NCBI GenBank assembly: GCA_028687755.1
Contig: JAQTZL010000003.1
Span: forward strand, 144,712-208,711
Length of the DNA stretch: 64,000 bases
Reading direction: 5' to 3'
From: Candidatus Nanopelagicales bacterium
GTDB lineage: Bacteria > Actinomycetota > Actinomycetes > S36-B12
Every line of letters starts with the position of its first letter. The stretch's first letter is position 1. Of this stretch, positions 32,144 to 35,566 are shown one piece after another. Under the pieces are notes generated by a model. The model ran no database searches. It was not told where the DNA came from and was given only the letters and a program-made list of their open reading frames with translations. The translations under genes and the position numbers were made by a program.

Positions 32144-32929
32144 GTGGTCTTTCACAAGAAAGAAAAAATTCAGCTCAAATCACCTGAGCAAATTTTGCTC
32201 ATGCGTGCAGCCGGCTTGGTTGTTGCCAACGCGTTGCAGGCAGTTGAAGCAGCTGTAGCGCCGGGCGTCACGACAAAAGAACTCGATGCAATTGCCCATG
32301 AAGTTATTCGTTCCTCAAATGCAACGCCTTCGTTCTTGGGTTATCACGGTTACCCCGCTGCTATCTGTTCGTCAATTAACGAAGAAGTGGTGCATGGCAT
32401 TCCTAGTGATCGCCAACTGATTGACGGCGACATCATTTCGATCGACTGCGGTGCAATTGTCAATGGTTGGCATGGGGATGCAGCGATCAGTGTGATGGTA
32501 GGCAATGCAAAGCCTGATGTGATGAAGCTTTCTAAAGTAACTGAACAGTCATTGTGGGCTGGCCTTGGTCAAGCGCGTGCTGGAAATCGGCTTTCTGATA
32601 TCGGCCATGCTGTTGAAACTGTTGTAAGAGCCGCTGGAAACTACGGAATTCTGGAAGATTACGTTGGCCATGGCATCGGTACATCAATGCACATGCAGCC
32701 ACCGATTCCTAACTATGGAACTGCAGGCCGCGGTCCAGTGTTGAAAGTTGGCATGGTGTTAGCAATTGAACCAATGGTCACCATTGGTTCGCCAGAGGTT
32801 GAAGTGCTTCAAGACGGTTGGACGGTTGTCACTGAGGACCGTTCCTGGGCTTCCCATTGGGAACACACGGTTGCAATTACGCAAGAAGGTCCGTGGGTGC
32901 TCACTGCACTCGATGAAGTTCGTCTCTAG
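32144..32929 (+). CDS. map: Methionine aminopeptidase type I
   Basis: VVHGIP, IDCG...GWHGD, GHGIG, AIEPM, EHTV metal ligands. Confidence 0.98.
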   Translation: MVFHKKEKIQLKSPEQILLMRAAGLVVANALQAVEAAVAPGVTTKELDAIAHEVIRSSNATPSFLGYHGYPAAICSSINEEVVHGIPSDRQLIDGDIISIDCGAIVNGWHGDAAISVMVGNAKPDVMKLSKVTEQSLWAGLGQARAGNRLSDIGHAVETVVRAAGNYGILEDYVGHGIGTSMHMQPPIPNYGTAGRGPVLKVGMVLAIEPMVTIGSPEVEVLQDGWTVVTEDRSWASHWEHTVAITQEGPWVLTALDEVRL

Positions 32930-32945: not shown

Positions 32946-33440
32946 ATGAAGAAAGTTCTCGCTGCAGCGTTTGCAGTATTCGCAATTGTTGTAGCGGCAC
33001 CTGCTCAAGCAGCGCCTGCCGCTCAGGAGGTCGTACTCGTTACGACACTGACAAGTGTCGGCACCAGCCTGAACACCATTGGCAATGTGAAGTACGGCTG
33101 GAATGACCTCAAGGGTGTGGCGAACTGGGGTAAAGAGCCAGTTTCGATTCGCCTGCAAGGTGACGTGGCCTACAAGAACGACAGTGGACCATTCAATGGC
33201 TACTACACAATTACCCGTGCTGATGGAGCCCAGTTGGCATTCCATGTTGACGGACAGGCTTTGGCTATCCCTGTGGCTGCTGGAACCAAGACCAAGTTCC
33301 ATGGCGTGATGAGTTTCTTGCAAGGTTCAGGTGCGTACTCGAATGCGCAGTCAACGGGAACGATGGTTGGTGCACGCGAAGCGGCCATTGGTAGCCCAGT
33401 GCAAATGACCTTGCGTTTCACCATCGTTCCTCGCGGCTAG
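32946..33440 (+). CDS. Secreted hypothetical protein, 164 aa, predicted beta-rich
   Basis: ATG at 32946 gives the MKKVLAAAFAVFAIVVAAPAQA signal peptide; the track start of 32766 overlaps map and is too long. Confidence 0.8.
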   Translation: MKKVLAAAFAVFAIVVAAPAQAAPAAQEVVLVTTLTSVGTSLNTIGNVKYGWNDLKGVANWGKEPVSIRLQGDVAYKNDSGPFNGYYTITRADGAQLAFHVDGQALAIPVAAGTKTKFHGVMSFLQGSGAYSNAQSTGTMVGAREAAIGSPVQMTLRFTIVPRG

Positions 33441-33444
33441 TTTG

Positions 33445-33588
33445 TTAGTGATGACCCTTGTTGATCATGCCGATCATCTTGAGGTTCAAGCCAGCAAAGC
33501 GAAACAACTGCACAAACAGGTTCTTGCGCGCTTTGAGATCTTTGGCCGTTGGTAATGGTGCATTGGGAAATGTTTCGAGAGTAGACAT
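33445..33588 (-). CDS. Unannotated 47-aa basic amphipathic protein downstream of SQR
   Basis: Manual translation MSTLETFPNAPLPTAKDLKARKNLFVQLFRFAGLNLKMIGMINKGHH*. RBS AAGGTGA upstream; ATG 14 nt after the SQR stop. Below the ORF-track length cutoff. Confidence 0.8.
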   Translation of the reverse strand: MSTLETFPNAPLPTAKDLKARKNLFVQLFRFAGLNLKMIGMINKGHH

Positions 33589-33602
33589 GAGTGACTCACC
33601 TT

Positions 33603-35060
33603 CTATTCGGGGATTAAGTACCAAAACGGGCGAGCTTTTGCTTTGTAGATGAAGAGGTAATGCAACATCACTTTCATCCAGTGCGCGCTCAAACCAATTT
33701 CGCCGTAGGTCTCCTTGGTATCTCGACCCATCTCGCCGTACTTTTCTTTGTCAGGAATGATCGGGAATACCGTCATCGCTGCAGCGGTTCCCGTGCGCCA
33801 ACCTTTACCTGCAGAAGCGATACAGGCCGCACCCATGTCTGCCATTGATGCAGTGTGAACCTTGCCTTCGGCTCCGTGCTTGATGCGTTCGGCAATGCTT
33901 TGCGCAACGGCTCGACCAATGACGCCTGATGGCATGCCGGTGCGCGGTGGTGCCGGTGCGATCACCGTGCCATTTGGAGTGGTTCGGGGGCGTGACATCT
34001 GATGTGGGGGAGCGAATGCGATGCCAGCTGCCCAAACGTTGTCATATTTCACTGACTGGTAGGTCTTGGGCCAGTCACTTGCTTTCCACTCTTCGTACGG
34101 TTTAGCGGTGTAGTCGGCATCAACTTTCATGAAACCACTCGGCGCAAAAACCTCAGCAGTGATGTCATTGTTGTTGGCATCAAAGGCCTTCATGTCGACG
34201 CCACGAAAGGGTGGAAGCAACATTGCGAAGTCAAAGGACTGCTCGGATTTAGTGCCATCTATTTGCTCGTAATGCGCAACACCAGGTTCAACTTTTTCAA
34301 TGTGCGCAGACATGATTGCTTTGACGCCACGTTCATGAAAGAGCGATTCAGTGAACGTCTGGCTCGGAATAATTTGGTCTTTATGGCCGAAATTCATCCC
34401 ATCCATTCCGAAGTCACCAAGCTGTGCTTCGTTGGTGATGTAGATGACCTCGGCCTTGTCGCGAACGCCTTCTTTCACAAGTTCATGCTCAACATTGAAG
34501 GTGTACTCAAACGCGGCGCCCTGACATGTACACGTGCCATGCCCCATACCGATCAAGAGTGTTTGGTGTTGACCGGCTTTAAGTTTGTCGATGACTTCAT
34601 CAAAGGCTTTCGCAGTTTCAGTCGCGTGGCCTGCGGTGCACACTGACCAGGTGTAACCATCGGGTCCCAACCCCGGGGTTGCGCCAAAGTTCAGTTTTGG
34701 TCCGGTGGCATTGATGAGAAAGTCATATTCGAGATTGGCTTCTTGACCTTCGCGTGCTGGATCGGTGTAACGCACCGTGACGTGTGGGTGCGATTGGGCA
34801 GGCGAGCCTTCGGGATGAAGCTCGATCCCAAGTGCTTGGTGGAACTCAATGTTTTTTCGCTTATAAATAGGTGCAAGAGGGAACGTGACTTGCTTGACGC
34901 TCATCTGCCCGACGCCAACCCAAATATTTGAAGGGATCCAGTTCCACTTCGAGTTGGGGGCGACCACTACGACTTCGTGTTCCTTACCCAGCATCCGACG
35001 AAGGTGCAGCGCGGCGGTGTGACCAGCGATCCCAGCGCCCAAAATCACGGTTCTTGCCAT
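33603..35060 (-). CDS. sqr: Sulfide:quinone oxidoreductase (flavoprotein disulfide reductase family)
   Basis: GAGIAG FAD motif, WIPSNIWVGVG, three SQR-type Cys contexts (SVCTAGHA, TCQGAAFEY, ACIASAG), PRTG, C-terminal amphipathic KARPFWYLIPE; RBS AAGGAG. Confidence 0.9.
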   Translation of the reverse strand: MARTVILGAGIAGHTAALHLRRMLGKEHEVVVVAPNSKWNWIPSNIWVGVGQMSVKQVTFPLAPIYKRKNIEFHQALGIELHPEGSPAQSHPHVTVRYTDPAREGQEANLEYDFLINATGPKLNFGATPGLGPDGYTWSVCTAGHATETAKAFDEVIDKLKAGQHQTLLIGMGHGTCTCQGAAFEYTFNVEHELVKEGVRDKAEVIYITNEAQLGDFGMDGMNFGHKDQIIPSQTFTESLFHERGVKAIMSAHIEKVEPGVAHYEQIDGTKSEQSFDFAMLLPPFRGVDMKAFDANNNDITAEVFAPSGFMKVDADYTAKPYEEWKASDWPKTYQSVKYDNVWAAGIAFAPPHQMSRPRTTPNGTVIAPAPPRTGMPSGVIGRAVAQSIAERIKHGAEGKVHTASMADMGAACIASAGKGWRTGTAAAMTVFPIIPDKEKYGEMGRDTKETYGEIGLSAHWMKVMLHYLFIYKAKARPFWYLIPE

Positions 35061-35113
35061 TGCGTGCTCCTTGCCTCCAGCGCCAATCGATCAATTGGCT
35101 GCTCACTGAGGAG

Positions 35114-35136
35114 CCTATACCCCACAGGGGTATAGG
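35114..35136. promoter_or_regulatory. CsoR/CstR/RcnR-family operator-like palindrome upstream of sqr
   Basis: CCTATACCCC-ACA-GGGGTATAGG, perfect 10-bp inverted repeat with C/G tracts and AT-rich flanks, 53 nt upstream of the sqr ATG. Confidence 0.75.
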
Positions 35137-35201
35137 TGTTAGAGGCTAAAGTCCATAGTTGGAGCAGAAAGACTTCCGACAATTCGGGTAAATCACCCCG
35201 A

Positions 35202-35344: not shown

Positions 35345-35566
35345 ATGGGTAAAAAAGACGGAGCGATCGAGCTTGAGGGCACGATCATGGAGTCTTTGCC
35401 TAATGCGATGTTTCGCGTGGAGTTGGACAACGGTCACAAAGTTCTTGCGCATATCAGCGGCAAGATGCGAATGCACTACATCCGCATCCTGCCTGATGAC
35501 CGCGTAGTTGTTGAACTTTCACCGTATGACCTCACCCGCGGCCGCATTGTCTATCGCTACAAATAA
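35345..35566 (+). CDS. infA: Translation initiation factor IF-1
   Basis: [27 protein letters not shown]; ATG at 35345. Confidence 0.99.

Follow-up and report, generated by a model that had tools for sequence, protein, structure and literature searches.

Sulfide:quinone oxidoreductases (SQRs) are regarded as single-subunit enzymes, and SQR-based sulfide handling under the control of a CsoR-family repressor is well known. The cst operon of Staphylococcus aureus is ordered cstR/tauE-cstA-cstB-sqr and that of Enterococcus faecalis cstR-rhdA-rhdB-coaP. Among the SQRs themselves, type IV enzymes span the Chlorobi, the Campylobacterota, and the Aquificae. In E. faecalis, the coenzyme A (CoA) persulfide reductase CoAPR is a CstR target (PMC9405070). 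In Streptomyces coelicolor, the actinobacterial CsoR-like repressor ScCsoR, a sensor of sulfane sulfur that is released by polysulfide through a cysteine, binds the site ATACC-N6-GGTAT (PMC7533328). Here we consider a minus-strand unit of 1.74 kb, made of a palindromic operator, an sqr gene, and a gene for a 47-amino-acid (aa) protein, which lies between map and its neighbor, a gene for a secreted hypothetical protein, on one side and infA on the other. The unit sits in a stretch of 64,000 nucleotides (nt), hereafter the window, from a Candidatus Nanopelagicales bacterium (GenBank assembly GCA_028687755.1, contig JAQTZL010000003.1, forward-strand positions 144,712 to 208,711). The source genome, here G000, comprises 2.5 Mb in 21 contigs and is 97% complete; within it, the window is C21:144712-208711.

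A sulfide system under a CsoR-family repressor is unsurprising by itself in a freshwater actinobacterium, and the ordinary part of what we describe is a cst-like system. What is unusual is the linked 47-aa protein, a distinct clade of ~480-aa SQRs, the scattering of the regulon, and an apparent swap of regulator. We consider it likely that the sqr unit is one scattered arm of a sulfide/persulfide stress regulon with an obligate 47-aa partner, and not a stand-alone energy module. We compared 80 loci with SQRs 64–99% identical to that of the window, from Nanopelagicales, Acidimicrobiia, Kineosporia, and other actinobacterial metagenome-assembled genomes (MAGs). In about half of them, the sqr-small pair is followed directly by cstR and/or a CoADR-rhodanese gene, frequently joined by genes for rhodanese and trx, and many show the order sqr-small-cstR-rhodanese-CoADR_RHD-trx. 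The pair is thus linked in these relatives to a standard detoxification operon, a finding that the original prediction had listed as counting against it. Since relatives carry the same genes as one cst-like operon, we take the system to be one of sulfide/persulfide homeostasis.

The enzyme and its 47-aa partner

The larger open reading frame (ORF) is, by its sequence and its predicted fold, an SQR, and sulfide-dependent quinone reduction is predicted for it. In Pfam it matches only Pyr_redox_2 (PF07992), above the cut-off, and the motif GAGIAG of an N-terminal Rossmann fold for flavin adenine dinucleotide (FAD) occupies residues 8–13. When PDB sequences were searched with phmmer, the top matches were the type I SQRs of Acidithiobacillus ferrooxidans and Aquifex (E ~1e-33); weaker matches were the type V enzyme of Acidianus (1e-7), human type II SQR (1e-5), and yeast Ndi1 (3e-3), and no FCSD was among them. 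An AlphaFold2 model built from 30 homologues had a mean predicted local distance difference test score (pLDDT) of 91.9. Its best Foldseek matches were again type I SQRs (E 1e-36, target-normalized TM-score 0.83–0.88), followed by human SQR (1e-24), NDH-2 (1e-22), type V SQR (1e-21), and FCSD (1e-18). Identity as an NDH-2 or an FCSD was therefore rejected. The sequence alignment pairs C141 (motif SVCT), C179 (CTCQGAAFEY), and C413 (ACIASAG) with Cys128, Cys160, and Cys356 of the A. ferrooxidans enzyme, whose His132 and Glu166 also have retained equivalents; the three cysteines are kept in clade members down to 44% identity. The original prediction had named the protein an SQR rather than an NDH-2 or FCSD, and had matched its three cysteine contexts to the FAD-linked and redox cysteines of Aquifex/Acidithiobacillus-type SQRs; the alignment and the fold comparison bear out both claims.

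Both by sequence and by predicted fold, the enzyme is closest to type I SQRs but falls within a separate clade of ~480-aa proteins. A scan of 1.84 billion representative proteins returned only about six full-length clusters (at 50% identity) that are related to it along the whole length. These are 63, 45, 44, 38, 37, and 34% identical to it and 476–486 aa long; below them there is a gap, after which come SQRs of ~400–440 aa at E values of 1e-32 to 1e-41. In a maximum-likelihood tree, the ~480-aa proteins form a clade with 100/100 support on a stem of 1.44 substitutions per site, apart from a clade of ~400-aa proteins (Sulfoacidibacillus, Alicyclobacillus, Anaerolineales, Baekduia) and from a cyanobacterial SQR. 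A query with the nearest outside cluster (P0208) led to the ~400-aa clade, in Alicyclobacillaceae, Chloroflexi, and Thermoleophilia, and to none of the named SQR types. Three members of the ~480-aa clade, those with the longest branches, have lost one to three of the catalytic cysteines and are therefore probably not sulfide oxidases. Such cysteine-losing members occur at L086:5001-6538 and L087:5001-6461 and among proteins P0127, P0138, and P0139, and one of them retains a homologue of the small ORF that overlaps its stop codon.

The assignment to a formal SQR type is less direct. The protein does not match the selenoprotein subtype of type III, with a score of 48.6 bits against a cut-off of 525 for the NCBIfam model SQR_III_seleno, a model of that subtype of type III only. 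Types I and IV form one clade with common FAD-binding and redox cysteines (PMC4584964), and among 531 actinobacterial genomes 13 type IV, 11 type III, 61 type II, and 1 type I SQRs were counted (PMC5702731). The label "type IV-like," which the original prediction gave the protein, is plausible in that it is compatible with this literature. There are thousands of close homologues, for the most part from environmental metagenomes and from MAGs, and many carry the label Nanopelagicales or Acidimicrobiia; in oxic lakes, the enzyme may thus be of importance to the turnover of reduced sulfur.

The small ORF is, to judge from its conservation, a real gene. The unit is ordered promoter/operator, sqr, a 14-nt spacer with a Shine-Dalgarno sequence, and the 47-aa gene, whose ATG at 33588 lies 14 nt past the sqr stop and is preceded by AAGGTGA; a mechanical ORF list starts the gene further upstream, at TTG 33624. 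By tblastn, a homologue was found directly downstream of sqr in 74 of the 80 loci. A family hidden Markov model (HMM) recovered it at 73–79 bits in the 5 further loci with downstream DNA, and the last locus stops within sqr, so that the two genes co-occur in 79 of 79 scorable relatives. The spacing between them ranges from 3 to 79 nt, with one 4-nt overlap. Further out, on a JGI contig, the stop of an SQR homologue with 45% identity is overlapped by a 50-aa gene, and on the contig of a low-GC flagellate an ORF scoring 17 bits with the HMM comes after a cysteine-less relative with 34% identity.

The products are 47–50 aa long and share the motif P-x7-R-x-N-x3-Q-x2-R-F-x3-N within the consensus M..x..APLPT..TLR.R.NL..Q.WRF..LNLKM..MI.KGHH; with the family HMM, the protein of the window reaches 86 bits. 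Neither it nor 42 homologues belong to any Pfam or NCBIfam family, with matches at chance level only, and the 431 protein clusters that we found are called "hypothetical protein" wherever the source gives a name. An AlphaFold2 model (pLDDT 90) has an extended, proline-rich N terminus and helices at residues 15–22 and 24–45. A linked protein without a family that spans the Actinomycetes and the Acidimicrobiia goes beyond the textbook account of SQRs.

We regard the 47-aa protein as a candidate accessory subunit of SQR. It seems unlikely that the ORF is instead a small, independent membrane peptide, or a spacer whose translation only tunes expression of the downstream genes of the ancestral operon. 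Such a role would suit the long-branch relatives that lack one to three catalytic cysteines, one of which has a homologous ORF: a peptide retained there is not tied to sulfide chemistry as such. Yet that same retention also fits a structural partner of the flavoprotein scaffold, and five positions besides the start methionine (P13, R21, Q27, R30, and F31) stay unchanged in both of the actinobacterial classes represented and in loci whose SQRs are as little as 64% identical. Moreover, the ORF stays with sqr whatever lies downstream, including in G000, where nothing follows. Because the linkage holds regardless of the downstream genes, and even beside a cysteine-less paralogue, a structural partnership with the flavoprotein is suggested, and a role in sulfide chemistry appears less likely. 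If the accessory peptide is what its conservation suggests, it would alter how this clade of SQRs is expressed and assayed.

Operator, dispersed genes, and regulator

The palindrome upstream of sqr is, from its sequence, a putative operator of the CsoR/CstR class. Its two 10-nt arms are 100% complementary, 54 nt separate its near edge from the sqr ATG downstream, and it fits the ATACC-N6-GGTAT site of ScCsoR (compared with PMC7533328). The core pattern TACCCC-N1-7-GGGGTA occurs at 4 sites in the 2.5-Mb genome and at 0 in a reversed control, and each of the four stands in front of genes (Table 1). By contrast, the looser pattern TACCC-N4-7-GGGTA gave 9 sites genome-wide against 7 in the control; weight was therefore given only to the strict, GC-rich class and to position in front of genes. 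In 43 of the 80 relatives, the 300 nt upstream of sqr contain an operator of the same class. Thus, the proposal that the palindromic element is a regulatory operator of sqr stands. A second, imperfect palindrome in the presumed leader has 9-nt arms that are 89% complementary. It may serve as a second binding site or form a hairpin in the leader. Only the closest relatives, G007 and L012, retain it, and it is missing from G006, G012, and L006.

The CoADR-rhodanese fusion behind the second core site matches E. faecalis CoAPR, Bacillus anthracis CoADR-RHD, and Shewanella NPSR over its full length (8a56/3icr/3nta; E 1e-150 to 1e-166). The genes of the regulon lie on at least five contigs and have separate operators. 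The relatives suggest where they came from: G002 and G003, of the same genus and with SQRs 87% and 83% identical to that of the window, have a trx-(rhodanese)-sqr-small-cstR cluster, which in G003 lies beside ilvD, and in G000 the CoADR-rhodanese gene with its operator adjoins ilvD. The picture is one of a former operon broken up, its pieces each keeping an operator and one of them dropped into the map-infA gap. A regulon caught in the course of breaking up also goes beyond the textbook account. With a slightly relaxed pattern, an extra site, ATACCCTATGGGGGTAT (G000 C18:41800-42521), precedes an S-adenosylmethionine (SAM) methyltransferase gene beside the third core site. This protein has weak TehB/MduS-like matches and may be a thiol or sulfide methyltransferase of the sqr regulon.

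These findings bear on the original prediction that the cassette is a self-sufficient, minimal sulfide-inducible module serving mainly to harvest respiratory energy, an idea to which we now give little credence. In its favor, the unit is physically isolated and has its own operator, and, as predicted, no persulfide dioxygenase, rhodanese, or TauE gene is nearby, since the 245-kb contig that carries sqr has no rhodanese, TauE, or MBL-fold matches and no MBL-fold protein of the genome is linked to an operator. It is also established enzymology that SQR reduces quinone, so that any turnover feeds the respiratory chain. However, SQR does so whatever its purpose, and harvest therefore cannot be told from detoxification on this ground; nothing else supports harvest over detoxification. 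Against a minimal module, the same class of operator stands at the CoADR-rhodanese gene, at a DUF2202-like/thioredoxin/rhodanese operon, at a Prx5-like peroxiredoxin gene, at the methyltransferase gene, and at the regulator gene, so that sqr has its operator in common with persulfide-clearing genes elsewhere in the genome. Relatives keep sqr in cst-like operons with cstR, rhodanese, CoAPR, and trx. Among 40 relatives, SQR is patchy, found in 6 of the 13 genomes from the genus and in 1 of the family's 12 other genera; this distribution suits an accessory stress gene, and a circuit that stays repressed until persulfide is present follows the logic of detoxification.

Which protein binds these operators is a separate question. 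G000 has one CsoR-family gene (C1:163718-163996), downstream of a gene for an NDH-2-like oxidoreductase. Its product carries Cys35, His60, and Cys64; among NCBIfam families it matches RicR best, with a score of 110 bits (cut-off 175). The element ATACCCCCAGTGGGTAC lies directly upstream of the gene and equivalents lie upstream of its orthologues in five relatives; the regulator is therefore very probably autoregulated through the same class of operator. In C1:162424-163996, and in the five relatives that keep the pairing, the regulator always follows a flavoprotein gene of the NDH-2-like/"Nterm_to_SelD" type, and an autoregulatory-looking operator lies between the two genes.

The regulators adjacent to sqr in relatives are a different paralogue, with two cysteines and Ser, Gly, or Glu at the position of the histidine. 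A two-Cys, His-less paralogue beside sqr is, at the level of sequence, the fingerprint of CstR. HMM and tblastn searches detected no His-less CstR in G000, none was detected in G006, G007, and G012, and these four genomes have a single CsoR-family gene each. G002 has both paralogues, and G003, G009, and G013 have the CstR type only. We are inclined to think that the Cys-His-Cys paralogue now runs the sulfur regulon in the lineage of G000. The apparent replacement of CstR would then offer a natural test of copper versus persulfide sensing within the CsoR family. That the operator set is a copper regulon, with the sole CsoR-family protein acting as a Cu(I) sensor of the RicR/CsoR type, is very unlikely: the Cys35-His60-Cys64 triad is kept, RicR is the best match, and the ATACC-N6-GGTAT sites bound by RicR/CsoR and by persulfide-sensing CsoR-like proteins closely resemble each other (PMC7533328), but the RicR score is well under the family cut-off, three P-type ATPase genes and four CopZ-like genes of G000 have no such operator within 400 bp upstream, the operator-linked genes encode sulfur/thiol enzymes and an uncharacterized SAM methyltransferase, and the same genes adjoin a His-less CstR-type regulator in relatives.

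A sulfide/persulfide stress regulon of this kind would work as follows. Without sulfide, a tetramer of the CsoR-family protein would sit on the palindrome, which appears to overlap a TAGGCT/TATAGG −10-like element in the minus-strand reading. Basal SQR would then make persulfide, the cysteines of the repressor would be modified, and the whole regulon would be released. The candidate sensor is the RicR-like Cys-His-Cys paralogue and probably not the usual His-less CstR. SQR itself, by homology a monotopic flavoprotein, would oxidize HS- at the C179/C413 pair, with C141 in the position of the FAD-linking cysteine of type I enzymes, and would yield sulfane sulfur (persulfide/polysulfide) and reduced quinone, presumably menaquinone. 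The 47-aa protein would most likely be an accessory subunit that serves in anchoring or at a quinone or sulfur-acceptor site, its long helix packed against SQR where the enzyme meets the membrane. The other arms of the regulon would clear or transfer the sulfane sulfur made by SQR, and the CoAPR homologue, rhodanese, thioredoxin, and peroxiredoxin would guard the pools of CoA and thiols. The entry of electrons into the respiratory chain would be an automatic by-product.

Several points weigh against this account. First, the regulator keeps the Cu(I)-ligand triad and is RicR-like, so the signal could be copper. Second, the genome is 97% complete, and a His-less cstR could therefore be missing from the assembly. 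Third, a consensus-based promoter scan found no sigma-70-like promoter for the sqr unit. Fourth, of the seven MBL-fold matches in the genome, none is operator-linked and none could be assigned as a persulfide dioxygenase; three of the four MBL-fold proteins scanned are GloB-like, far under the GloB and Blh cut-offs. Finally, the association of the 47-aa protein with SQR is drawn from linkage only, and its long helix is moderately hydrophobic and only modestly amphipathic (hydrophobic moment, muH, 0.35–0.39).

A bolder combination is conceivable, although we hold it to be doubtful. It would join a two-subunit SQR clade, with the 47-aa subunit in the membrane, quinone, or sulfur-acceptor site, to a sulfide-catalyzed NAD(P)H-to-menaquinone shuttle that SQR forms with the CoA persulfide reductase in abundant freshwater Actinobacteria, and to a RicR-like Cys-His-Cys protein recruited as persulfide sensor.

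The gap between map and infA

Every element that the original prediction placed on the minus strand between map, the hypothetical gene, and infA was found there, namely the operator, the 485-aa SQR, and the 47-aa ORF. Its description of the site as inside the ribosomal superoperon holds for the location, but the unit occupies the gap between two operons, spc/secY-adk-map and infA-rpmJ-alpha, and does not lie inside a transcription unit. Every flanking gene lies on the plus strand: secY, adk, map, and the hypothetical gene on one side; infA, rpsM, rpsK, rpsD, rpoA, and rplQ on the other. The identity of map follows from its sequence and from adk-map-infA synteny in relatives, and infA is 95–100% identical across the family.

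Table 1. Features of the sqr locus in window coordinates, and strict core operator sites of the source genome
Feature	Position	Strand	Remarks
map (methionine aminopeptidase)	32144-32929	+	terminal gene of the secY-adk-map operon
signal-peptide hypothetical, 164 aa	~32946-33440	+	convergent with the small ORF
two-gene unit	~33441-35180	-	
inserted segment (sqr unit and control region)	33441-35180		missing from G010, of the same genus
47-aa partner gene	33445-33588	-	MSTLETFPNAPLPTAKDLKARKNLFVQLFRFAGLNLKMIGMINKGHH
sqr	33603-35060	-	485 aa, FAD-dependent; cysteines C141, C179, C413
second palindrome, imperfect	35082-35099		GCCAAT-N6-ATTGGC; presumed sqr 5' leader
operator palindrome	35114-35136		CCTATACCCC-aca-GGGGTATAGG; putative CsoR/CstR class
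infA (IF-1)	~35345-35566	+	leads the row infA-rpsM-rpsK-rpsD-rpoA-rplQ
core site 1			in front of sqr
core site 2			10 nt upstream of the 543-aa CoADR-rhodanese fusion
core site 3			in front of the DUF2202-like/thioredoxin/lipoprotein-rhodanese row
core site 4			in front of the Prx5-type peroxiredoxin

The predicted insertion, with a derived position for the unit, was confirmed by an empty site. In G010, a member of the same genus, the order is map, hypothetical gene, 273 unrelated bp, and infA, and in a blastn comparison of this junction with the window, homology stops at ~33435–33441 and resumes at ~35180–35181. In five other genera of the family, adk, map, and infA are contiguous, with gaps of 100–300 bp. 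The 273 bp of G010 (L100:1065-1338) hold two terminator-like hairpins, GATCCCTAGGTG...CACCTAGGGATC followed by a T-run, and the strong hairpin with its T-run reads as a terminator. Neither direct nor inverted repeats of at least 7 nt border the insert, which also shows no GC anomaly. An sqr gene stands at infA only in G000, G006, G007, and G012, whose SQRs are 94–99% identical. The unit was thus probably placed between the map and infA operons within a single sub-lineage of a genus of freshwater actinobacteria that probably belongs to the Nanopelagicales. In nearly every species of the genus that was checked, different genes occupy the region upstream of infA (loci L102–L106, L108, and L114). 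The edge of the ribosomal gene rows is here a local hotspot of rearrangement.

The 164-aa hypothetical protein belongs to no Pfam or NCBIfam family. It is found in G010 and G007 and not at the map-infA junction of other genera; it is a genus-level addition to the gap. Its stop codon and that of the convergent small ORF are separated by 4 nt. A terminator scan gave one terminator-like match, within the small ORF, which is below the number expected by chance, and no terminator lies in the interval 33441–33444 between the two genes. Because G000 has no terminator between these convergent stops, transcription of a derepressed sqr may read antisense into the map operon.

Comparison with known systems

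It is useful to set the enzyme beside type I SQRs of known structure, those of Aquifex aeolicus (3hyv) and A. ferrooxidans (3sz0/3t31). Like them, it has the FAD Rossmann motif at the extreme N terminus, the three homologous cysteines, and a C-terminal helix. Unlike them, it is ~55 residues longer, and identity is only 25–28%. One candidate for the extra length is the poorly aligned stretch at residues ~290–335. His198 of the A. ferrooxidans enzyme aligns with an Asp, and the window family has signatures of its own, GHTA at residues 13–16 and an extra cysteine, Cys177, in GHGTCTC. Moreover, this clade, unlike type I, always comes with the 47-aa partner gene. Type IV, or SqrD, enzymes are represented by Chlorobaculum tepidum CT0117 and Sulfurimonas denitrificans YP_393133; against the breadth of that type, the ~six full-length clusters related to the window protein form a narrow group.

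As a regulatory system, the closest counterparts are the CstR-controlled cst operons of S. aureus and E. faecalis, which share with G000 a CsoR-family repressor, a GC-rich ATACC...GGTAT palindrome, and a gene set that includes SQR, rhodanese, and CoADR-rhodanese. The differences lie in arrangement and content. The genes of G000 are scattered, each with its own operator, rather than joined in one operon, and the operator-linked set includes neither a persulfide dioxygenase (CstB) nor TauE. Its SQR is of a three-cysteine, type I-like kind, whereas that of the Firmicutes cst operons is type II, and its unit has the extra 47-aa gene. The lineage also has only the Cys-His-Cys, RicR-like regulator, with no His-less CstR found. 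The ScCsoR circuit of S. coelicolor has the same ATACC-N6-GGTAT operator class but controls a persulfide dioxygenase, a rhodanese, and TauE, and no SQR; in G000, the operators instead serve an SQR and a CoAPR homologue, and no persulfide dioxygenase.

For the pairing of a flavoprotein with a small protein, YjlC-YjlD of Bacillus subtilis (integrative model, PDB 9a63) offers a parallel, as an analogy only: a quinone reductase with two dinucleotide-binding domains and a co-encoded partner. This entry was among the Foldseek matches of the window SQR, and it illustrates that flavoproteins of the NDH-2 type can have small co-encoded partners.

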